Positions 2,871 through 50,710 of a stretch of DNA of 64,000 bases are shown here, in pieces. The DNA lies in assembly GCA_948787875.1 (NCBI GenBank), contig CAQFKO010000001.1:31545-95544 (forward strand). Reading direction: 5' to 3'. Made by a program: the position numbers and the translations under genes. Origin of the DNA: an uncultured Eubacteriales bacterium (GTDB lineage Bacteria > Bacillota > Clostridia > Christensenellales > UBA1242). Positions within the stretch are counted from its first letter, which is position 1, and each line of letters starts with the position of its first letter. The notes beneath the pieces were generated by a model. The model was not told the DNA's origin. It did not search any database and saw only the letters and a list, made by a program, of their open reading frames with translations.

Positions 2871-3032
2871 TGTTTCCCCACTAAATATTATTACAATTTA
2901 AATAATATATTATTTAATATTTTATGTCAAACAAAACTTGACAAAGTGCCAAACCAAAAAAGAAATATAATTATTTATTAAAAAAATCTGCAACAAAAAA
3001 GAAGCAACGATGTGCTTCTTTTCTTTATCTGA

Positions 3033-4586
3033 TTAATCAACTACGGTTACTGTGTAGAATCTTACCATTTCGCCAAGTTCAACTTTTCCGTAGATAGAGT
3101 TAGAAATAACAACTCTTACTGTGTTATAACCACCAACTACATCAAAGTATTTTGCACCTGTGTCAAGGTCAATGATGTTTGTTACAAACATTGATGAAAC
3201 AGTTGTGTCGTCATTGTTGTTTAACAAAACTTTTCCTGTAAGTCTGATGTTGTAAGCACATTGGTTTGCAACATCAAGTGCAAATTTGTTAAGGTCAACA
3301 GTTGCTGCTACAAGTTTTTTTGCAAAACCGAATGCTTTTAAAACATTAACATTTGAATCTACAATTACATCTTTGATTGTGATATATCTTTCTGTTGTGA
3401 TTTTTCCAGCTGAATATTCTGCATTTCTAACTTCGTATACAGCACCTGCATAGATAACATCAGCGTTAACATTTGCTGTTACAGAAATTGTGTCGATTGT
3501 TGTTTTTTGGTCTGCGTTATCTGCTCTGATAACATTTACGATACCAGCGATTTTTGTGAAAGCTGATTCTTCAATAGTTTTAACACCATTTGTGTTGAAG
3601 CTTGAACCGATTTGGTTTGCTGTGATGTTAATAACATCTTTTTCAATATTTGAACCAAGAACATAACCTGCAACACCACCTACATAAAGTACTTGGTCAT
3701 ATTCTGATACAAGATAAAGGTTAACTGTGTTGTTTGAAATTGTTGAGTTATAAGCATATCCTGCAACACCGCCTACAAAGTAGTGGTCACCGGCATTTAC
3801 ATTAACTTCAACAGTTGTTTTTGTGTTGTCGATTGTTGTTCTGTTAGCTACACCTACTACACCACCTACTGCGTTATAGCCTTGAACATAGTTTTCTGCA
3901 TAAACTGAATATGCATCAGCGTTGATAGTTGCTTTTACTTCTGCATTGATTGTTGAATTGTTTGCAATAGCTGCAACAGTTCCAATTGTAAGTTGTTTGA
4001 AAGCTGCTTCATGGTCTGCAACGAATGCTCCACCACGAATATAATCATATACTTCGTTTGCAATTTCTACTTTAACATTGTTATAAACAATATCTGAAAT
4101 TTCTGCGTTATTGATTTTTCCGAATACTGCAACATTTGAAACATATTTTTCGTCTGCGTCTTTAACAATATAGTTATTAAGATTTGAGGTTGTTACATCA
4201 ATTGAAATGTTTTTAAGTTCAAAACCGTTACCATTGATGTGTCCGTTGAATTCTTTGTCTTGGAAAAGTGTTACAAAGTTGTTTTCAGCAAAGTCAATAT
4301 CTCTGTCTAATTCAAAATATTTTTCTTCTGTTCCGAATTCTCCAAGAAGATTTAAAAAGCTTTCTGCGTTATAGATAATGTATGGCTTTTCTTCTGAACC
4401 ATCGTTCTCTTCATTGCTTGGATATGGTTTTTCTGGATCAGGACGATCAGTGATGTTTGATCCGTTATTACCGTTATCGGTGTTGGTTTTGCCAGGTGCA
4501 AATACGCTGGCAACTGTGACAGCTACAAGTGCCACTGTTAAAATAATGCTACAAACTAAAGATAAAAATAAATTTCTTTTTTTCAT
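3033..4586 (-). CDS. GLUG-motif repeat surface protein
   Basis: The ORF-track start 4595 directly abuts the SD. AGGGAG lies 9 nt before the ATG at 4586 (MKKRNLFLSL...). N-terminal TM/signal. Repeated GG[VL][AV]G motifs are present (GGVVGVANRTTIDN, VGGVAGYAYNSTISNN, VGGVAGYVLGSNIEKD). Confidence 0.55.
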   Translation of the reverse strand: MKKRNLFLSLVCSIILTVALVAVTVASVFAPGKTNTDNGNNGSNITDRPDPEKPYPSNEENDGSEEKPYIIYNAESFLNLLGEFGTEEKYFELDRDIDFAENNFVTLFQDKEFNGHINGNGFELKNISIDVTTSNLNNYIVKDADEKYVSNVAVFGKINNAEISDIVYNNVKVEIANEVYDYIRGGAFVADHEAAFKQLTIGTVAAIANNSTINAEVKATINADAYSVYAENYVQGYNAVGGVVGVANRTTIDNTKTTVEVNVNAGDHYFVGGVAGYAYNSTISNNTVNLYLVSEYDQVLYVGGVAGYVLGSNIEKDVINITANQIGSSFNTNGVKTIEESAFTKIAGIVNVIRADNADQKTTIDTISVTANVNADVIYAGAVYEVRNAEYSAGKITTERYITIKDVIVDSNVNVLKAFGFAKKLVAATVDLNKFALDVANQCAYNIRLTGKVLLNNNDDTTVSSMFVTNIIDLDTGAKYFDVVGGYNTVRVVISNSIYGKVELGEMVRFYTVTVVD

Positions 4587-4617
4587 TTCTATCATCTCCC
4601 TTTTTTTAGTTTAGACT

Positions 4618-4646
4618 ATTATAATACTTTTGCAATTAAATGTCAA
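4618..4646 (-). promoter_or_regulatory. sigma-A promoter P1 of the GLUG gene (TTGACA-17-TATAAT)
   Basis: Minus strand reads TTGACA (4646-4641), a 17-nt spacer, then TATAAT (4623-4618). Both hexamers are perfect consensus. Confidence 0.75.
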
Positions 4647-4682
4647 TACCTTTCGTAAAAAATATTATAATTTTTTTGTAAA

Positions 4683-4804
4683 AGCCCAAATTTTCGGCAT
4701 TCAGATTACAAAAAAGTTTTGTTTTTGTAACCTGTTATATATATTATATCATAACTAAAAAGCAAAATCAAGACCATAAGCCGAAAAAGTGATGTTTTTG
4801 GGCT
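4683..4804. repeat. split inverted repeat (8+8 bp) enclosing 81 bp
   Basis: AGCCCAAATTTTCGGC (4683-4698) is the exact reverse complement of GCCGAAAA (4780-4787) plus TTTGGGCT (4797-4804). The right arm is interrupted by 9 nt. An inner 9-bp hairpin TTACAAAAA/TTTTTGTAA lies at 4706-4730. Confidence 0.7.
4743..4771 (-). promoter_or_regulatory. second upstream promoter P2 (TTGATT-17-TATAAT) inside the inverted-repeat-bounded segment
   Basis: Minus strand reads TTGATT (4771-4766), a 17-nt spacer, then TATAAT (4748-4743). Confidence 0.55.
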
Positions 4805-4883
4805 AAAAAATGCATATTTTTTATGCTTTTTTGTCGAAAATTCGTGTTTTTTACAGTCACATTCTATATATAATATTAATTGC

Positions 4884-4910
4884 ATAAAAAAATGACCCAT
4901 TTTTGGGTCA
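4884..4910 (-). terminator. rho-independent terminator after the lipoprotein gene
   Basis: TGACCCA (4893-4899) / TGGGTCA (4904-4910) form the stem, followed on the minus strand by TTTTTTT. Confidence 0.75.
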
Positions 4911-4942
4911 AATTTAAATTTTTTTTGAAAATATTGATACTT

Positions 4943-5986
4943 TTAAGCCAAAATTTCTATTTTAAAGCTCAATTTCAGCGGTTTACCACTGCTATCCGTT
5001 AAATTCGTAACAAGTGACACATTAAAGCTGTAATCGTTTTTTGTTATATCATTTATTTGAATCAAAATCTTGTTTTCGGAATAATCAGCAGAAACTATGC
5101 TGCTATCACTGAACGAAAACAGAGTTTCGATATTGTTTTCAAGCAAAATGTTTGTATCACTGAAAAACAGTACATTATAGCTAATAACATAAGCGCCACT
5201 TTGTGTTTCCAAACTTGACGATTGCAAAGTTATGGTTTCGCCTTCTTTTATAAATTTATCGACTCCGCCAAGCTTTAAAACTGCCTTTCCCGCACTTTGA
5301 ATAACATTTATTTTAACAACAAACTTGGTTTTTTCTTTTCCGCTTTGGTCAAGTAGCGAAACCGTTACATTTGCCGTTGCCTCATTGGTGCAAACCGCAT
5401 AAATGGTTAGCCTGTCGCTGTTTGGAACTTGAACCTTTGTTTCGTCACTGCTGACAACCTTAAACTTATAATCGCTTTCTAAAATCTGTCTTACGTTGTT
5501 TTCACCCTCAAATTCCGCCAAAACATCAATGGTATACATTCCTTGCGCTGCAAGTTGAACCTCTGTGAATTTTGGATAAACTTTTGTCGGATATTTTTTT
5601 AGCGTAACAAGGCAGTGATCGCTGTGTCCGTTTACATTTATTTCTACATCAAGGTCTTCAAAATCGGCTCTTGTTACGGTGATTACTCCATCACCTTCAA
5701 GCACAAAACGCTGTCTGTTTCGCTCGGTTGCATCATTGTTATAAGTTACTGCATAACCCGACCAAGTGGAAGGATTGACTTTGTAATTTAATTTTGTCGG
5801 AACTCCAAGGTCAACTTCAAAAATCGCCCTGCCCTTGCTGTCATATTTTTCGCTTACAAAGTTAACCGCGTTTGCTCCGTTAGTCGCAGTTGCACCACAA
5901 CCGCTAAAAAGCATGGTTAAAGGCAATGTTATACAAAATAACACCGCCAGCATTATTGACCTTAAATTCTTCTTTAAACTCTTCAA
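4943..5986 (-). CDS. lipoprotein with Ig-like beta-rich body
   Basis: TTG start with a GGAG SD. Lys-rich n-region plus lipobox LFSG|C. The gene begins only 20 nt after the pyk stop, so it is probably co-transcribed. Confidence 0.6.
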   Translation of the reverse strand: MKSLKKNLRSIMLAVLFCITLPLTMLFSGCGATATNGANAVNFVSEKYDSKGRAIFEVDLGVPTKLNYKVNPSTWSGYAVTYNNDATERNRQRFVLEGDGVITVTRADFEDLDVEINVNGHSDHCLVTLKKYPTKVYPKFTEVQLAAQGMYTIDVLAEFEGENNVRQILESDYKFKVVSSDETKVQVPNSDRLTIYAVCTNEATANVTVSLLDQSGKEKTKFVVKINVIQSAGKAVLKLGGVDKFIKEGETITLQSSSLETQSGAYVISYNVLFFSDTNILLENNIETLFSFSDSSIVSADYSENKILIQINDITKNDYSFNVSLVTNLTDSSGKPLKLSFKIEILA

Positions 5987-6006: not shown

Positions 6007-7416
6007 TTAGTCTATATTAGAAACAACAAGCATATTCGAGCCCTGACCGCCCGTTAACACTCCTGCCGTTTGAATAACTATATCGCCACTCTCCACAAAC
6101 TCACTCTTTTTTGCAAGTTCTCTTGCCGAAGCCAAAAGCTCATCTGTGCTATAATAAATTTTATCGAGAATAGGATAAACCCCCCACATTAATCCAAGTT
6201 TGTAATAAACTCTTGAATTTGGGGTAAGCGCAATAATTTTGCAACCCGGCTTAAATCTGCAAATACTTTGAGCAGACATTCCTGTGTTTGTTGTTACCAA
6301 AATAGCATTTGCGTTTAAACTTGTGGCAAGCGCACACGCTGCATAGCCTATTCCGCAAGTAATATTGTTTGTTGGAACAAAGCGTGACAATGAGTTATTA
6401 AAGTCTATGCTTCCCTCTGCTTCTTCCGCAATTTTTTGCATGGTTGCAACAGCTTCAACAGGGTGCTTTCCCGCACTTGTTTCTCCCGAAAGCATTATTG
6501 CCGAAGTACCGTCGTAAATTGCGTTTGCAACATCGGAAATCTCCGCTCTTGTTGGTCTGATATTGTTTATCATTGATTCAAGCATTTGAGTTGCCGTTAT
6601 GCTGAGTTTTCCGAGCTTATTTGCAACTGATATCATATCTTTTTGAATATGAGGCAATTTTTCAAAGGCAATTTCTACACCAAGGTCACCTCTTGCCACC
6701 ATTACGCCTTCTGATGCGGAAATAATTTCTTTCATGTTTTCAACGCCTTTTTCAGATTCTATTTTAGAAATTATAAAGGCATTGTCTTCACCAAGGTCGG
6801 CAAGAAATTTTCTTACATCTTCAACATCTCTTGCACGGTTTACAAAAGAAATGGAATAAACATCAACATGTTCTTCCACACCAAACTTTAAATCGGATTT
6901 GTCAATATCACTGAGATATTCCATATTAAGATCCACACTTGGAACGCTTATGGATTTGTTGTTTGAAAGCTCTCCGCCAACCACAACTTCGGTATAAATA
7001 ACATTTGATGTTTTGCTAAGAACGCAAAGTTCTATCAGTCCGTCGTTAAGCAAAATTTTTGTTCCTTTTTTTACAATTGAAGGAAGCTTTTTATAAGTTA
7101 CAGAAACAATTGAATTGTCGCCGTCTACAAGTTCTGTTGTAAGGGCAAAGTCTTGACCTTTTTTTAGTGTAACCTTTCCGTTTTTAAACTGACGAATTCT
7201 GATTTCGGGACCTTTGGTATCAAGCATAATTGCAACAGGCAAATTGAGTTCAAATCTTGCTTGCTTAACAAGATTCATAAGTTCTCTGTGAGTTTCGTGA
7301 GTGCCGTGGCTCATATTGAATCTTGCGACATTCATTCCCGCAAGCATCATATTTTTTAAGGTTTCGAGGTCTGAACAAGCCGGACCGATTGTGCACACAA
7401 TTTTTGTTTTATTCAT
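6007..7416 (-). CDS. pyk: pyruvate kinase
   Basis: 469 aa with KIVCTIGPA...MNVARFNMSHG...MLDTKGPEIR and MVARGDLGVE, the canonical PK motifs. AGGAG SD. Confidence 0.95.
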   Translation of the reverse strand: MNKTKIVCTIGPACSDLETLKNMMLAGMNVARFNMSHGTHETHRELMNLVKQARFELNLPVAIMLDTKGPEIRIRQFKNGKVTLKKGQDFALTTELVDGDNSIVSVTYKKLPSIVKKGTKILLNDGLIELCVLSKTSNVIYTEVVVGGELSNNKSISVPSVDLNMEYLSDIDKSDLKFGVEEHVDVYSISFVNRARDVEDVRKFLADLGEDNAFIISKIESEKGVENMKEIISASEGVMVARGDLGVEIAFEKLPHIQKDMISVANKLGKLSITATQMLESMINNIRPTRAEISDVANAIYDGTSAIMLSGETSAGKHPVEAVATMQKIAEEAEGSIDFNNSLSRFVPTNNITCGIGYAACALATSLNANAILVTTNTGMSAQSICRFKPGCKIIALTPNSRVYYKLGLMWGVYPILDKIYYSTDELLASARELAKKSEFVESGDIVIQTAGVLTGGQGSNMLVVSNID

Positions 7417-23537: not shown

Positions 23538-23751
23538 AAAATTTTCCTTTCTTTTGTGTATTTATAATTAAATTATCTTATTTTAAATATGTTTTGTCAA
23601 CAAAATATTTGCAATGCAAATGGCTTATTTGAAAAAGCCGTGTAATTTTAAATAATTTGCCAAAAAACAAAAAACTTTTTGCTTAAAAACTTTTTATAAA
23701 AGTTCAAAAAAATATAACTTTTTGTTTTAAAAAATAATGTTTATTATGCAA

Positions 23752-23780
23752 TTGACAAATAATAAAGAAATATTTAAAAT
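23752..23780 (+). promoter_or_regulatory. promoter TTGACA-17-TAAAAT of tRNA-Gly
   Basis: TTGACA at 23752-23757, a 17-nt spacer, TAAAAT at 23775-23780. The tRNA starts 16 nt downstream. Confidence 0.65.
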
Positions 23781-23796
23781 AAAAATTGTAAAAAAT

Positions 23797-23870
23797 GCGA
23801 ATGTAGTTTAGTGGTAAAATGTGGGCTTCCCAAGCCTGAGTTGTGAGTTCGATTCTCATCATTCGCTCCA
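23797..23870 (+). tRNA. tRNA-Gly (anticodon CCC)
   Basis: Hand-folded cloverleaf. Acceptor stem GCGAATG/CATTCGC, anticodon stem TGGGC/GCCTG with loop TTCCCAA, T-arm GTGAG-TTCGATT-CTCAT, discriminator T and encoded CCA. 74 nt. Confidence 0.9.
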
Positions 23871-23976
23871 AATTATTTATAAAAATATTTTTAAGTTTTT
23901 GCTTAAAACTTAATTATAAATTATTAACCATACATTTTTAAATAAGATTGTGGCATAAATATAAACGGAGAAAATT

Positions 23977-44067: not shown

Positions 44068-47000
44068 TCAAATTTCTATAATTTTTTGATTGTCGATAAA
44101 GCAAATATATTTGCGAACAACCCTCATATCAAACGCCCTTGAAGCCGCACTAGCATACAATTCAAGTTGCATTTTATATTTTTTCAGCTTTTCGTCAGTT
44201 TGATTTCCCGTTTTGTAATCAAGCAAAATAAGCTCATTGTTTCTGACAATTATCAGGTCAATAACACCTTGCAACAAAACATTATCGCCCTCACCAAGCA
44301 TTCCGTCAAAAATGCCGGAGTTTATATTTGCACAAAATTCACGCTCTTTTATTATTATATCGTTTGCCGAAATCTCTTTGAAAAATGGAAGCTTCAAAAT
44401 ATTTTCTATTGTTTGTTTATCCACATAACTTGCCTCTGCTTGCGACAAAATTTCGGTTTTTATTGTTTGAAATTGCTTGTCGAATTCTTCTTTGTTTTTA
44501 AAATCCAATGCCTCAAAAACCTTGTGATAAGCTGTTCCCCTTTCGGCAAAAGACTTTAATTTTTCATCACCAAGAAAAGTTTCAAAAGCCTCATATTCGT
44601 CGTCAAAATCTTCGTCGGGCCCACCTAAACTATTGGAACTTATAATTTTTGAAACCGAACATTTGAGCGGAACTTTTGTGCTTGACTCAAACTTATAAAC
44701 AAATTCTTGCGGAATATTTTTTTCATTTGACCATAACAAAAGTTGAGGCTTTTTTGCCTTGCCACTGTTTAAAAGTTTTGACTGCTCAATAGTTTCAAAA
44801 TTTACAAAATCAATATGCTTGCCCGAAAGCTCATCGGAAATAATTTTTTCAAACCAGCAAGAAAAAGAATTTGGACGATCGGGAAACTCACTGAGAAGTT
44901 CGGATTTTTGTTTTGAGCAAACCACAAATAATTTTTGTTTTGCCCTAGTCAAGCCGACATATAAAACTCTTTGATTTTCTTCAACAAGCTTTCTTTGTTC
45001 GGTTAAACTTATTGAAGAAAGTGGTAACGACCTATGCTTTTCTCTGCTATCAAAATCAAAATAATTTATGCCTGCACCAAATTGTTTGCTAAGCAACAAA
45101 TCACCTCTTAATGACTGATTTGAAAATTGCTTAGAAATGTTTACCAAAAATACCGCCTTGAATTCAATTCCCTTTGATGCGTGAATACTCATAAACTTAA
45201 CGGCATCTTCTCCGCTTTCGTTTTGCATTTCTTCACTGAAATTTTCATTTTCAAAAACAAACTCATAGGCATAAACTTCGGGAAGTCGGTTTACAAAATT
45301 TTGAAGCACAGAAAGTCTTTCCGCACCATTTTCAAAAGATAAGTTAATTTGCTTTAAACAAAACTCTTCAATAATTTTTTCTGCCAAACTTTTAACACTT
45401 AAAACTTTTGACAACTCTTTGAACTTAAAAAGCTTTTCATAAAAATTACGCATTTTTTGCTTTAAATTTTGATCACTTAAATTTTCAAAAAGTTTTGTCG
45501 CCTCATAAAATCTTAACTTTAAATCAAGCCTTCTTATCATTGCAAGCTCGTTGTCGGAAAATTGAAACAAATTGCTCTTTAAAACTTTAAACAATAATAT
45601 ATCGTCGTTGCTGCAAACGCAAAGTTTAACAAAACTTAAAATTTCGTCAATGTAATTATTTTTTGCAATATCATTTTTTTCGTCACTTGAAACCGCAATT
45701 CCGAAAGACGCAAGTGTTTGCAAAAACTTGGCTGTGCTTTCGTTTCTTGATTGAACCAAAATTGCAATATCAGAAAGAGTTATTCTGTTTGGATTATCAT
45801 AGCTAATTAGTTCGGAAATCTTTCCTGCAACATAGTTTGCCTCTGCTATTGCACTTTTTTTATCCTCGTCGTCTTCTTGCTCATGATTCTTTACCGAATA
45901 AACACTGTTTGCAAACTGCTTTTCTGTTTTATCTGATTCAGTATCAATAAAACAAAGATTAACACTGTTTGGCAAATCCAAATTATTTTCACCCGCAACA
46001 AACATGCTGTCCTTTTCGTAATCTAATCCGCCAAACTCATTTGTCATTACGCCACAAAAAACCATATCAACAAATTTCAAAATCTTTTTATCACTTCTGA
46101 AATTTGCATTTAAATTTATTACCTTATCATTATTTAAACTTGCTCTGTATCTTTGATAAGTTCCAAGAAAAATATCGGGGTCGCAATATCTAAACCTGTA
46201 AATACTTTGCTTTATGTCGCCCACCATAAACCGATTGTTTTTGCCGGAAATAAGGTCGATTATTTTTTCTTGAACTTCATTAATATCTTGATATTCGTCA
46301 ACAAACACATATTTGTATCTTGCCTTAACATCACTTAAAATTGCAGGGTCAGACAAAACCAAAAGAGCACTCTTTTCAAGGTCATTAAAGTCCAAACCAT
46401 TGGCATCTTTTTTTAACTTTGAATAGATTTCATTGAATTCAAGCACAAGTTCAAGCAAACATTCAAGCATTTCTTTTCCGAATTCAAGCCCACAAACAAG
46501 CTCGTTTTCGTCTGCGGAAACATAATTATTTTTATAATTTTCCAAATGCCTTTTGATTTTTTCTTTAACAAATTTTGCCTCTTCTGACAAATACTTAAAT
46601 TCGTCTTTAACGGTTGGCGTTCTGGCAAGCTCTATATCAAAAATGTTTTTTGAGTTTGTTAAATAGCTTTTGTTTATGTTAACCGCACAAAGCATTTGGC
46701 TGATTTCTTCAAAATGCAAAGCATATTTTTCACAGCCTGCAAGCCTTGCTTTTTCCGCAAATTTTTCAAGAATTTCAATGTCTTTTTTTATTTGCCCGCA
46801 AACATAATTATTTATTACCTTAGCACAAACATTGTTTTGCAAACTTGTGTTATGGGTTTCGTTAATTTTGTTTCTAAACCAATTTTCTCCGTCTAAAATA
46901 GAATTTAAAAAATTGTTGAGTTTAAAAATCTCTTGCTTTAATCCTTCACTGCTTCGTTTCTTTTGAAAAATTTCAAAAAGCTTAAAATAACTTATATCTC

Positions 47001-47445
47001 CAAACTTTTCTTTTTCTTCAAAAAGTTTTGACGCAGCCTTTTCTTTTAACAAGTTTGCTTCAACCTCATCAATTATGTGGTAGGCAGGGTCAACTTGTGC
47101 CTTATAAAAATATACGGAAATAAGGCGCGAACAAAAGCTGTGCAAGTTTGAAATATCGCTGGTTTGCACATTTTCTATTTGACTTATAACCCACTCATCA
47201 GCTTGAAGTTTGTATAATTTTTCAATAAGCTTTCGCTTCATATCGGAAGCACTTGCCTTAGTAAAAGTAACTACCAAAAAATCAGTGATCGGAACTTTTG
47301 GCTCTCCCATCATAAGACTGATTATTCTTTCAATCATAACGGTGGTCTTTCCACTGCCCGCAGAAGCACTAACTAGCAAATTGTTTCCCCTATCGTTTAT
47401 TGCTTCTAATTGCATGGGGGTATATTTAACTTCTGAATTTTCCAT
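44068..47445 (-). CDS. addA: helicase-exonuclease AddAB subunit A
   Basis: YTPMQLEAINDRGNNLLVSASAGSGKT (UvrD motif I), VDEYQD and the C-terminal RecB nuclease motif LLDYKTG. GGGGGA SD before ATG 47445. The track's 51-codon N-terminal extension overlaps addB and was rejected. Confidence 0.9.
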   Translation of the reverse strand: MENSEVKYTPMQLEAINDRGNNLLVSASAGSGKTTVMIERIISLMMGEPKVPITDFLVVTFTKASASDMKRKLIEKLYKLQADEWVISQIENVQTSDISNLHSFCSRLISVYFYKAQVDPAYHIIDEVEANLLKEKAASKLFEEKEKFGDISYFKLFEIFQKKRSSEGLKQEIFKLNNFLNSILDGENWFRNKINETHNTSLQNNVCAKVINNYVCGQIKKDIEILEKFAEKARLAGCEKYALHFEEISQMLCAVNINKSYLTNSKNIFDIELARTPTVKDEFKYLSEEAKFVKEKIKRHLENYKNNYVSADENELVCGLEFGKEMLECLLELVLEFNEIYSKLKKDANGLDFNDLEKSALLVLSDPAILSDVKARYKYVFVDEYQDINEVQEKIIDLISGKNNRFMVGDIKQSIYRFRYCDPDIFLGTYQRYRASLNNDKVINLNANFRSDKKILKFVDMVFCGVMTNEFGGLDYEKDSMFVAGENNLDLPNSVNLCFIDTESDKTEKQFANSVYSVKNHEQEDDEDKKSAIAEANYVAGKISELISYDNPNRITLSDIAILVQSRNESTAKFLQTLASFGIAVSSDEKNDIAKNNYIDEILSFVKLCVCSNDDILLFKVLKSNLFQFSDNELAMIRRLDLKLRFYEATKLFENLSDQNLKQKMRNFYEKLFKFKELSKVLSVKSLAEKIIEEFCLKQINLSFENGAERLSVLQNFVNRLPEVYAYEFVFENENFSEEMQNESGEDAVKFMSIHASKGIEFKAVFLVNISKQFSNQSLRGDLLLSKQFGAGINYFDFDSREKHRSLPLSSISLTEQRKLVEENQRVLYVGLTRAKQKLFVVCSKQKSELLSEFPDRPNSFSCWFEKIISDELSGKHIDFVNFETIEQSKLLNSGKAKKPQLLLWSNEKNIPQEFVYKFESSTKVPLKCSVSKIISSNSLGGPDEDFDDEYEAFETFLGDEKLKSFAERGTAYHKVFEALDFKNKEEFDKQFQTIKTEILSQAEASYVDKQTIENILKLPFFKEISANDIIIKEREFCANINSGIFDGMLGEGDNVLLQGVIDLIIVRNNELILLDYKTGNQTDEKLKKYKMQLELYASAASRAFDMRVVRKYICFIDNQKIIEI

Positions 47446-47446
47446 T

Positions 47447-50400
47447 TTAAATTCCCCCTTTGTTAATACTGTCCTTATTTGACATATCAAAACTGCCTGA
47501 ATTAACTTGACTAATGCAATGTCTGCCACCTGAAAAACTTGAATGTTCAAGACCACAATATCCCGCATATTTGCAAGTTTCGCACCTCTCCAAGCCACCC
47601 GAAGCAGTCATTGAAAGCGGAGATGGCTCTATATATCCCGAAAGAATTTCTTCTGCACCGACTTTAATAAGCAACAAAACATAATCTTCAATGTTGTCAA
47701 AGTCGGTTGAGGATAAAAATCTTTCACCCACTCTGCCTTGTTTGTTGATTTGAAGTTGACCGTTTTTATCCTCTCTTACTTTTAGCGGAACAAAATTGCT
47801 ACAAGCTGTGGTTGCCGAAAGACTGCTGTCAAAATGCTTTATAACATCAATATCGTCAAGCAAAAAGCCTTGCATTTTGTAATGCGATAAATACCCGTCT
47901 TTATCTTCTTCAAAATCACTGTGAACGGGCAAATAAAACAATCCCGCAGGTTTAGTTTTTCCAAGTTTTTTTGTTGCGGACAAATAAGAAGCCAGCTGAA
48001 TTTTTTTGCCATAATAAATGCCCGAAAGATTATTTTTTACATCTCCCGTTTTATAGTCAACAATTCGTACAAACTCACCCATTTTATCTATGCGGTCAAT
48101 CTTTCCCACAAGCGAAAGCTTTTTTCCGCTGTTAAGCTCAATTTCTATCGGTGAAATTTTTCCGAAATCAAATTCGAGTTTTGAAATTTTAAATCCCGAA
48201 CCGTTTTGTTCTTCCAAAATATTTTTACAAAGTTTTTTGCATTCCAATAAAACCAAATTAATAACTGCTTTATTTTTAGAAACATTTACTTTTTGTTCTG
48301 TCAAAGCAACATTTAAAAGTTTTTCTATGCCTTTGTCAAAATTAACCTCGTCAAGTTCAAAAAAACTTTTTATATCTTTTGCAAAAAGCTCAACCACTCT
48401 GTGAACGATATTACCAATATCAAGATTAGAAATTTTTGAATCTTTGTTTTCTTTTAATCTAAGCCCATAATTTGCAAAAAATTGATAAGGACAACCAAAA
48501 TAATTTTCAAGCTGAGAAACACTTGTTGTGTTTTCATAAAAATAAAGCTTATCTGCGTTTTCTATTTCAAAATTCTTTTTGCTAAAAGAAAGATTTTCAA
48601 TAAATTGTTTATAGTTTTCGGAAAGATTAACTTCGGAATATTTTTTGTTTACATCAGTCAGATTTTGACCGTCTTTTAAAAATTTTCCAACGGACTCGGC
48701 AAATTCAAGCTCGGCATTTGTTTTTGTAACATATCCGCAAGCATCAACCTTTTTGCATAAAACTTTGCCTTGAAAAAGCTCAATTAAACTGCTTATAATT
48801 TGAGCAGGCTTGTTTGCACTGCCCGACTCTGACTTTAAACTATAACTCACAAACAGTTTTTCTTTTGGCTCTAATAACGCCTCATAAGCCCTGAAATTTT
48901 CTCTTGCATTAATAGTGCTAACGGTTGGCTCAACACTTTTTTTGATTAGATTTTTTGCCTCATCAAGTTCACTGTCAAGAATAATGCCCGTGTCGCCAAG
49001 CTTAAACGGAAACTGCCCGTCAACTGCATCAAACACAAATAAATCTTTTATATCAAAAAAGCCGTCAGTATTGTCTTGCACAATAACGCAATCTATTGAA
49101 ACCGGCGATAAGTTTAGCTTTATTTCCGAAAATCCAGATAAATATATCTGCAAAAATTCATTTGACTCAACACAAAGTTCTCCCATAAATTCACAAAGCA
49201 TAGCAGAAAAATTTGAATGTTTTTCCAAAATAGCTTGGGTCAGTTTTGCCTCAATAATTTGATTTAATTCTTCTTGCTTTTGAGACAAATAAGAAAGCTT
49301 GTTTTTTATATCAAAACTGTCAATTATAAATTCACATAAATTGGCAAAATCATTAACGGTTTTTGAACTGCTTAACCTTTGTTCAAAAGCCAAATAAAAC
49401 AGCTTTAACTTATTTAAAACTTTGCTAAAAATTTGCTCGTCTTGTTCGTTTTTAAACTCATATTTTATTTCGCTTAAAAATCCGCCATAATTTATTCCGC
49501 TAGCCTTTACAATATTATAAAATTCAGACAAATCGACTTCGCAAAAAAGCGGATTGGAAACAAAATTAAGCACATCATTAACTGATAAATGCCAAAAATA
49601 AAGAGCAAAAGCACCTTCTATGAATTTTACAAAAAAATGATTTGAAAGCTTGTGCTTTCTGTTAATAAAATAAGGAATATTATATCTTTTAAAAGTGTTT
49701 TCAATATCTTTGTAGTTTTCTTCAAGACCGCACGCAAAAACTCCGATATCTTTAAACCTTTTTCCCGACCTTATCTCTTCAATAATGTTAGTCGCAACAA
49801 ATTCAAGTTCTTGCTTTTTGTTTTGAGCTTCAAAAACTTTTACATTGCCCTTTGGTTCAAATTTTTTATTTTCCGTGCTAAACAAATAGTTTGCAATATT
49901 ATAAAAATCACCACTTTCAAAAGTTTTGTAAAATGAAGGAACATAAGCATATTTAAGGCTGTCTGCTATATGCTTAAACTTTAAATAAAGTTCGTTTTTT
50001 TGAATATAAAAATCTTTTCGTTTTGAATTAAAATACACTGAGGAAAAGGTTATGCTTTTTGAATGAGTTGCAATATCTTTAAGCACATCTTCCATTTCAA
50101 AGGTAATATTGTCAAACCCCACAACAAAAACATCGGACTCATTTATAAGCTTGTTTGATTTTGCAAACTTGGAAATAAGAGCCAGCCTGTCGCAATCGTC
50201 AAAAAGCTCACCACTAAGTCTGTTTTGATACTCTTTATAGATTAAAAGAATATCACTGAGTTTAAGCCTAAGCGCCTCACTGAAATTTGACAAAGAGTCT
50301 TCCAAATCCTGTGGCGAAACATTGCTGGATTTAAGTTGTGCAATTGTGTCATAAATTTTTTCGGCAAAACCGAGTGACTTTGCGGTTTTTTTGTAACAAA

Positions 50401-50710
50401 CAAACTTATCTATATTATCAAAAATAATTTTTCTTATCAAAACTATGCAAGTTTGTTTTGAAATTACATTTTCGCTTTTTATTCCGCCCATTCTGGAAAT
50501 AAGCCTTACAAAGCTGTAAACAAAAATATTTGCAGTTGCCCCGTTTTTGCAAAGACTTAGCATTTCTTTTTCGATTATAATTGATTTTGTTTCTGGCACA
50601 AGAACAATAACACTTGAAAACTTATCTGCCTCTGCTTTTTTGACAACAGCTTCAAGTGCTTTTGTGGTAGCCTTTTTTGTGGTATCTGACAAAATATAAT
50701 CAATTTTCAT
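47447..50710 (-). CDS. addB: helicase-exonuclease AddAB subunit B (RexB type, no Walker A)
   Basis: C-terminal nuclease motif RIVDYKTG and Fe-S cysteines (CPYQFF ... CETCKYAGYC). The N-terminus lacks GxGKT, as in RexB-type subunits. Confidence 0.85.
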   Translation of the reverse strand: MKIDYILSDTTKKATTKALEAVVKKAEADKFSSVIVLVPETKSIIIEKEMLSLCKNGATANIFVYSFVRLISRMGGIKSENVISKQTCIVLIRKIIFDNIDKFVCYKKTAKSLGFAEKIYDTIAQLKSSNVSPQDLEDSLSNFSEALRLKLSDILLIYKEYQNRLSGELFDDCDRLALISKFAKSNKLINESDVFVVGFDNITFEMEDVLKDIATHSKSITFSSVYFNSKRKDFYIQKNELYLKFKHIADSLKYAYVPSFYKTFESGDFYNIANYLFSTENKKFEPKGNVKVFEAQNKKQELEFVATNIIEEIRSGKRFKDIGVFACGLEENYKDIENTFKRYNIPYFINRKHKLSNHFFVKFIEGAFALYFWHLSVNDVLNFVSNPLFCEVDLSEFYNIVKASGINYGGFLSEIKYEFKNEQDEQIFSKVLNKLKLFYLAFEQRLSSSKTVNDFANLCEFIIDSFDIKNKLSYLSQKQEELNQIIEAKLTQAILEKHSNFSAMLCEFMGELCVESNEFLQIYLSGFSEIKLNLSPVSIDCVIVQDNTDGFFDIKDLFVFDAVDGQFPFKLGDTGIILDSELDEAKNLIKKSVEPTVSTINARENFRAYEALLEPKEKLFVSYSLKSESGSANKPAQIISSLIELFQGKVLCKKVDACGYVTKTNAELEFAESVGKFLKDGQNLTDVNKKYSEVNLSENYKQFIENLSFSKKNFEIENADKLYFYENTTSVSQLENYFGCPYQFFANYGLRLKENKDSKISNLDIGNIVHRVVELFAKDIKSFFELDEVNFDKGIEKLLNVALTEQKVNVSKNKAVINLVLLECKKLCKNILEEQNGSGFKISKLEFDFGKISPIEIELNSGKKLSLVGKIDRIDKMGEFVRIVDYKTGDVKNNLSGIYYGKKIQLASYLSATKKLGKTKPAGLFYLPVHSDFEEDKDGYLSHYKMQGFLLDDIDVIKHFDSSLSATTACSNFVPLKVREDKNGQLQINKQGRVGERFLSSTDFDNIEDYVLLLIKVGAEEILSGYIEPSPLSMTASGGLERCETCKYAGYCGLEHSSFSGGRHCISQVNSGSFDMSNKDSINKGGI

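Follow-up and report, generated by a model that had tools for sequence, protein, structure and literature searches.

A split inverted repeat upstream of a GLUG-type surface-protein gene is probably a chance or accessory feature of a conserved tandem-promoter region

In the 64-kb window (the whole stretch of 64,000 nucleotides that was analysed), a split inverted repeat at positions 4683-4804 brackets one of the two predicted promoters of a gene for a GLUG-type beta-helix surface protein, and the locus had been proposed to be a candidate inverton or, alternatively, a structured leader. We favour, with moderate confidence, the view that the repeat is a lineage-specific coincidence or an accessory feature in the fixed tandem-promoter control region of a strongly expressed monocistronic gene, the transcripts from the distal promoter (P2) carrying a stem-loop leader. 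The repeat does not look like a substrate of recombination, nor does the region look like a flippable DNA switch; as far as can be judged from the sequence, a major surface-protein gene appears to have here an ordinary tandem-promoter and leader cassette, albeit one of unusually high conservation.

The genes of the neighbourhood, encoding pyruvate kinase, a lipoprotein-like protein, the GLUG-like protein, an Ig-like surface protein and an Smr-domain protein, all lie on the minus strand (Table 1). Both promoters and the terminator of the lipoprotein gene, as given in the preliminary description, were recovered by the promoter and terminator scan, which put the terminator at 4893-4910, and the outline given there of a structured control region with two promoters, a hairpin, a terminator and a repeat proved correct: the region is both conserved and structured. 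The predicted P2 matches the consensus at ten of twelve positions and has the TG of an extended -10 in addition, TAGTTATGATATAAT within it being nearly invariant across 14 species (the window and 13 relatives described below). Transcription is predicted to start at approximately 4736 from P2 and at approximately 4611 from the proximal promoter P1. The A/T tracts located upstream of the -35 box, for P1 and in most species for P2, we take to be UP-element-like. Some details of the earlier account needed revision. The 347 bp given for the gap between the lipoprotein terminator and P1 in fact measure the entire intergenic region (4596-4942), counted from the first ATG of the open reading frame (ORF), and the hairpin between the arms, although indeed present, has a 13-bp stem at 4702-4734 rather than a 9-bp stem at 4706-4730.

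Table 1. Features of the locus and of the adjacent genes in the window.
Feature	Position	Strand	Remarks
Smr-domain gene		minus	same neighbourhood
Gene of Ig-like surface protein	1452-2870	minus	472 aa
Intrinsic terminator of the GLUG-like gene	2995-3020	minus	GAAGCA..TGCTTC then T6
GLUG-type beta-helix surface-protein gene	3033-4586	minus	517 aa, N-terminal signal or anchor
Short P1 leader	4584-4617	minus	RBS GGGAG (4600-4596), ATG (4586-4584); 74-94% identical across relatives
Predicted promoter P1	4618-4646	minus	TTGACA-17-TATAAT, 12/12 to consensus
A-run/T-run tract upstream of the P1 -35 box	4647-4679	minus	conserved T6 at 4657-4662
Dyad element 2	4681-4701	minus	AATGCCGAAAATTTGGGCTTT; conserved; includes the proximal arm (4683-4698)
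Hairpin 1	4702-4734	minus	13-bp stem, -12.5 kcal/mol; begins 2-3 nt past the predicted P2 start
Predicted promoter P2	4743-4771	minus	-35 TTGATT (4771-4766), 17-nt spacer, extended -10 TGATATAAT (4751-4743)
Distal (split) arm	4780-4804	minus	AGCCCAAAAA-CATCAC-TTTTTCGGCT; specific to the window lineage
Third partial copy	4835-4844	minus	CGAATTTTCG; complementary to the proximal arm
Intrinsic terminator of the lipoprotein gene	4886-4910	minus	7-bp stem TGACCCA/TGGGTCA then seven T; terminator scan
Lipoprotein-like gene	4943-5953	minus	signal peptide ending LFSGC; syntenic in all relatives
Pyruvate kinase gene	6007-7416	minus

The start codon of the GLUG-like gene is the ATG at 4586 and not the first ATG of the ORF at 4595, since the spacing of the ribosome-binding site (RBS) suits the former and the records contain the 517-aa product (in 20 contigs) but no 520-aa one. 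The product consists of an N-terminal signal or anchor, a low-complexity linker and a part with a predicted beta-helix fold (pLDDT 75.5, pTM 0.78). Among solved structures, the product is best matched by the beta-helix regions of IgA1 proteases, namely a putative one from Bacteroides and those of streptococci (E = 3e-4). The match to the Pfam family Glug (PF07581) covers three stretches and is below the threshold (E = 0.67; 10.9 bits, the cut-off being 20.5); several homologues of the protein carry PF07581. The Pfam and NCBIfam searches gave no S-layer or cell-wall-binding domain in the product. Among the 37 ORFs considered, this gene ranks lowest both in effective number of codons (32.5) and in GC3 (0.22); its RBS is strong and consensus-like. 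As the gene has its own terminator, we consider it monocistronic, and the codon bias together with this terminator suggests a very highly expressed monocistronic gene. Taken together, the features of the product, the codon bias, the RBS and the terminator fit an abundant envelope protein.

Some other ORFs of the window deserve mention. A 64-aa ORF at 4706-4900, overlapping the terminator and both promoters, was rejected as spurious. Two ORFs located at 913-1107 (64 aa) and 213-806 (197 aa) have no family match, and their synteny downstream of the surface-protein genes is kept in all long relatives. Elsewhere, the minus-strand ORFs 44068-47598 (1176 aa) and 47447-50710 (1087 aa) overlap by approximately 150 nt, which is probably caused by an over-extended start.

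The gene order was recovered in 13 further species-level loci (L011, L013-L020, L024-L027), yielding 14 species with the window included; partial loci were also obtained (L012, L022 and L021, the latter being a second contig of the L020 species). All recovered relatives come from uncultured gut Clostridia, and the protein homologues are at most 65% identical to the product of the window. A scan of genome contigs gave seven distant loci only. A metagenome scan with GGTTACAAAAAYAAAASTTTTTTG produced a single TARA scaffold (L023), which is unrelated; since covariance model R1 does not match it, we regard it as a chance match. In all 14 loci the order is pyruvate kinase, lipoprotein, a gap of approximately 360 nt, the GLUG gene and the next surface-protein gene, and the relatives carry an equivalent of the lipoprotein-gene terminator.

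P2 (TTGAyT-17-TGATATAAT) is directed at the GLUG gene in 14 of 14 species, and the distance from its -10 box to the -35 box of P1 varies between 96 and 98 nt only. P2 is 76-90% identical to that of the window, the interval between P2 and P1 54-88%, and the stretch from P1 to the ATG 74-94%; for the coding DNA (seven relatives) the identity is 62-73%, and for the 110 nt upstream of P2, 44-61%. Thus, the proximal arm is situated in a strongly constrained block, and the distal arm in essentially unconstrained DNA. In the four closest relatives, the block of approximately 190 nt comprising P2, the hairpin, the dyad, the A/T tract, P1 and the RBS is 74-94% identical to the window, compared to 65-73% for the coding sequence.

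The repeat itself is present exactly as had been reported: AGCCCAAATTTTCGGC (4683-4698) is the exact reverse complement of GCCGAAAA (4780-4787) plus TTTGGGCT (4797-4804), with 16 of 16 nt complementary and the two blocks of the right arm separated by 9 nt. Each arm is a quasi-palindrome of the form GCCnAAA..TTTnGGC, and the distal arm, which is able to form a local 9-bp hairpin, sits on an A5-N6-T5 UP-like tract at about -68 to -44 of P2. The internal mismatches of the arms (C-C in the distal one, G-G in the proximal one) turn into a C-G pair between the arms, hence the inter-arm duplex beats either local hairpin.

We scored this class of repeats (8+8 exact, gap at most 12, within 300 nt) against local dinucleotide shuffles. 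The class occurs four times in the 64-kb window, with 2.0 occurrences expected. If at least six G/C are required, the repeat at 4683-4804 is the sole survivor in the window, and the expectation decreases to 0.06 per 64-kb window and 5e-5 for the 23%-GC intergenic region. Thus, the repeat is locally improbable and non-random, but less improbable per window, and it is unremarkable for a scan over many windows. Locally, a perfect 16/16 match exceeds what pure chance would give, a hint that the arms are in some way related within the lineage. The conversion of mismatches into a pair may, in this lineage alone, go back to templated mutation, to selection for RNA pairing or to a second binding site; recombination is not what it suggests. 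Outside this locus, split inverted repeats of the 8+8 class occur at a single spot of the window, 23676-23911, where a direct repeat TTTTTGCTTAAAA(A)CTT (23676-23693 and 23895-23911) flanks tRNA-Gly(CCC) at 23797-23870.

In each species, we looked within the 80 nt upstream of P2 for the split sequence most complementary to the proximal 16-mer of that species. The complementarity is 16/16 in the window and 9-12/16 in the 13 relatives, where the residual matches are mostly A/T tracts. In the four best relatives in this respect (L019, L011, L016 and L020), the match is largely an A-run, 6-7 nt and a T-run, and this same pattern precedes the -35 box of P2 in most species and the -35 box of P1 as well. 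The locus L020 has a proximal 16-mer identical to that of the window, and its distal match is 11/16 only. A search for inverted repeats in six relatives gave no equivalent bracket around P2, just scattered lineage-specific imperfect repeats.

Two observations concern individual relatives. L013 has a repeat of its own, TATCGAAAAGCTACC / GGGAGATTTTCGATA (2897-2937), between the right half of its dyad and the bases immediately preceding the P1 -35 box; this is a different lineage-specific pairing in the same region. In L018, which is the closest relative, there is 87% complementarity between the equivalent of the distal arm and the left arm of the lipoprotein-gene terminator (636-650 and 755-769).

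Twenty contigs from various samples encode the exact 517-aa protein, and 10 of these were listed and compared. Among these 10, six contigs other than that of the window cover both arms; all six have the orientation of the window and are nearly identical to it. Six of the listed contigs (L003-L005, L007, L009, L010) end within the intergenic region, at 4608, 4653, 4661 (twice), 4837 and 4847, in or beside A/T homopolymer runs. A mixture of orientations is expected to break the assembly graph at the arm boundaries, and none of the 10 listed contigs ends there. The ends likely reflect a drop of coverage or run-length heterogeneity in the 23%-GC DNA, and not inversion.

Downstream of P2, two elements with dyad symmetry follow one another. 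In 10 of the 14 species, the folding of hairpin 1 is superior to that of shuffled sequence; in the other four the hairpin is weak or absent. Its outer stem varies between species (CAGG/CCTG, GCAAG/CTTGC, GCGAG/CTTGT, AATGAG/CCCATT), and the linker after it is (C)TRAAT. Dyad element 2, imperfect in the window, is a perfect 21-bp palindrome in L018 (AATGCCGAAATTTTCGGCATT) and L019 (AATGCCCAAATTTTGGGCATT), with a G/C exchange at mirror positions distinguishing the two. The folding of this element surpasses that of shuffled sequence in 7 of 14 species, and across species the energy of its hairpin ranges from -1.4 to -12.8 kcal/mol. When the two helices are placed on the alignment, 71.8% of the cells are paired, compared to 67.4% in shuffles and 28-58% in slid controls; nine helix pairs are altered on both sides, and the covariation is modest. 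RNAalifold found no consensus structure for the 14-sequence alignment. The numbers of G-U and A-C mismatches are equal (22 and 19) in the strand-bias test, hence an RNA hairpin and a DNA palindrome are indistinguishable in this respect, and the dyad may be a second RNA hairpin or an operator.

In Rfam, no family came near the gathering threshold (the best score was 26.9 bits compared to 49, all E >= 0.1), and in 151 kb covariance model R1 had no matches apart from the known copy, one in each locus. The dyad was not flagged by the terminator scan, and it is followed by a U-run of 3-4 nt, whereas at least five U are expected for an intrinsic terminator; as the dyad is thus a poor terminator, the P2 transcripts probably continue into the gene.

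These observations are brought together in the favoured reading as follows. Two tandem strong promoters of the sigma-70 type, P2 with the extended -10 box and P1 with the perfect consensus, each preceded by an A/T tract, would drive the GLUG gene. The transcripts initiated at P2 would have the 13-bp stem-loop 2-3 nt from the 5' end, followed by the second dyad or hairpin with the proximal arm, and would read through P1; the 5' stem-loop would most likely shield the mRNA from decay that depends on the 5' end. The distal arm would be a GC-clamped A5-N6-T5 tract upstream of P2, occurring in this species only, and its complementarity to the dyad element would have no conserved role.

Other readings assign a function to the dyad or to the repeat. 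It is possible, though we consider it doubtful, that the block of approximately 60 nt comprising hairpin 1, the AAAUGC linker and the dyad, which is conserved between the two predicted promoters in this clade of uncultured gut Clostridia, is an undescribed cis-regulatory leader RNA or operator for the clade's major beta-helix surface protein, to which the distal arm would add a second partner (by RNA pairing or as a second operator) that tunes P2 in the species of the window.

A dimeric regulator could bind the dyad, whose centre is at about +46 relative to P2 and -80 relative to P1. The distal arm would then be a second site in this species, having half-sites 9 bp further apart, and would allow looping around P2. 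This reading, which we hold to be unlikely, is in line with the perfect 21-bp palindromes of L018 and L019 and their mirror-symmetric G/C changes, with the lack of RNA strand bias in the mismatch counts, and with the fixed position relative to both promoters. In addition, the left half of the dyad, AAATGCyGA, is kept even where the pairing is lost (L013-L015), and the extra 9 bp are close to one helical turn. However, there is no further copy of the dyad in the 64-kb window or in 147 kb of the relatives' loci, the conserved gene block yielded no regulator, the relatives lack the distal site, and a change of 9 bp in half-site spacing is tolerated by few dimeric regulators.

Two known regulators were considered and rejected. 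For Spo0A, there is a perfect box TTTGTCGAAAA at 4830-4840 (plus strand), yet six boxes were found compared to nine expected, and L019 is without the CGAA core in both halves. For CodY, the matches to the box, judged by eye, are only 9-10 of 15. The sequence TTTGTCGAAAA at 4830-4840 overlaps the third partial copy CGAATTTTCG at 4835-4844.

Alternatively, P2 could produce a small RNA of approximately 58 nt, comprising hairpin 1, the linker, hairpin 2 and the U-run and ending at 4679-4682, in which case P1 alone would make the mRNA. The layout of a 5' hairpin, a single-stranded linker, a 3' hairpin and UUUU would suit such an RNA, as would the fall of conservation directly past the dyad element (alignment A3, columns 64-83). 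Nevertheless, we find it quite unlikely: the short U-run is consumed by the stem in L018 and L019, hairpin 2 is weak in the window (-5.7 kcal/mol) and absent in L013-L015, and neither the terminator scan nor Rfam supported it. A small peptide starting at the conserved ATG in AAATGCC, which in the window would read MPKIWAFTKKL, was also considered and rejected; the ATG has no RBS and is missing in 3 of the 14 species, and the substitutions, by eye, keep the palindrome and not the codons.

The preliminary description had also suggested that the arms form a 16-bp long-range RNA helix. In RNA reading through the lipoprotein terminator, the distal arm would pair with the proximal one, enclosing the P2 region and hairpin 1, and would alter processing or stability. 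Thermodynamically such a pairing is possible: in an artificial RNA from 4860 to 4640, the constrained fold with 16 pairs is within 0.5 kcal/mol of the minimum, with a pair probability of approximately 0.35, and the mismatches within the arms become a Watson-Crick pair between them. However, the minimum-free-energy fold has the distal arm folded on itself and the proximal arm paired with 4835-4844, where CGAATTTTCG rivals the distal arm for this partner in read-through RNA. The P2 and P1 transcripts do not contain the distal arm. The helix would need a start upstream of P2, and since no minus-strand promoter was predicted further upstream than the distal arm, it could form only in RNA that has run past the lipoprotein terminator. 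In the relatives the pairing is not kept either, and the conserved helices appear to be the two local hairpins and not the arm-to-arm one. Thus, we consider the long-range helix very unlikely to play a role.

According to the last reading, a recombinase encoded elsewhere would flip the segment 4699-4779 between the arms, turning P2 towards the GLUG gene or away from it. A locally non-random 16-nt inverted repeat that flanks a promoter ahead of a surface-protein gene is what such a switch would have, and the inverted repeats of known invertons, being 10-40 nt long and often imperfect, are compatible with it, as is the fact that their recombinases may be encoded elsewhere (PMC11892184, PMC5903667). 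Hence neither the length of the arms nor the absence of a site-specific recombinase from the 28 window ORFs scanned against Pfam, which agrees with what had been claimed, is decisive. The location of P1 (4618-4646) outside the segment, also correctly noted before, the 9-nt split of one arm, and the length of 81 bp, much shorter than the 266-296 bp of the fim and mad switches (PMC5903667), all speak against it. What we regard as decisive is the combination of a single orientation, the loss of the arms with the promoter fixed, and contig breaks lying off the arms. None of the 13 relatives with the same gene order keeps the arms, whereas the interval between and below them is conserved in one orientation, and the second orientation was seen neither in the assemblies of the six other same-species contigs nor in those of the 13 other species. 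The loss of arm complementarity in relatives with unchanged gene order is one of the two observations that the preliminary description itself had named as refuting an inverton. On this comparison of homologous intergenic regions, the candidate inverton proposed earlier is highly improbable.

The significance of the locus is mainly negative. An inverted repeat around a promoter beside a surface-protein gene is insufficient to call an inverton, and a comparison of syntenic relatives can settle the question without sequencing reads. The favoured reading makes the locus a well-delimited, strongly conserved promoter and leader cassette, probably for the most abundant envelope protein of a group of uncultured gut Clostridia; the cassette could serve as an expression signal, and the locus is an entry point to study the control of this surface protein.

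Several known systems resemble the locus in part. The invertons cwpV/Cdi1 and flgB/Cdi4 of Clostridioides difficile and those of Bacteroides share with it a short inverted repeat flanking a regulatory segment upstream of a surface-protein gene (PMC5903667, PMC11892184). The present locus differs in the single orientation, the unconserved arms, the 9-nt split of one arm, the 81-bp segment and the full promoter outside it.

In Lactobacillus acidophilus and Levilactobacillus brevis, the S-layer genes slpA are preceded by a tandem pair of promoters; a stem-loop of the 5' UTR stabilises the mRNA, whose half-life is approximately 15 min (PMC10221546). The likeness consists in two successive promoters, predicted in our case, ahead of a monocistronic gene for a surface protein, which here is presumably abundant, and also in a stem-loop in the 5' UTR (predicted here) and a strong RBS (PMC10221546). 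Unlike slpA, our gene encodes a GLUG-type beta-helix protein in which no S-layer or cell-wall-binding domain is recognised, the interval between its promoters contains a second dyad element, and the high expression is suggested by the codon bias, the RBS and the terminator.

In Bacillus, 5'-proximal hairpins protect mRNAs from decay, and RppH requires at least two unpaired 5' nucleotides (PMC3997798). The aprE leader of Bacillus subtilis has, similarly to the P2 leader, a hairpin about 2-3 nt from the 5' end (the predicted one in our case) and a strong RBS downstream (PMC3997798). The hairpin described here differs in being almost entirely A-U in its inner part and missing in 4 of 14 relatives, and the transcription start is a predicted one.

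Finally, the tandem promoters P1-P2 of rRNA operons are UP-element promoters. Two strong predicted promoters approximately 125 bp apart, each with an upstream A/T tract, form a similar arrangement at our locus, whereas the gene downstream encodes a protein.
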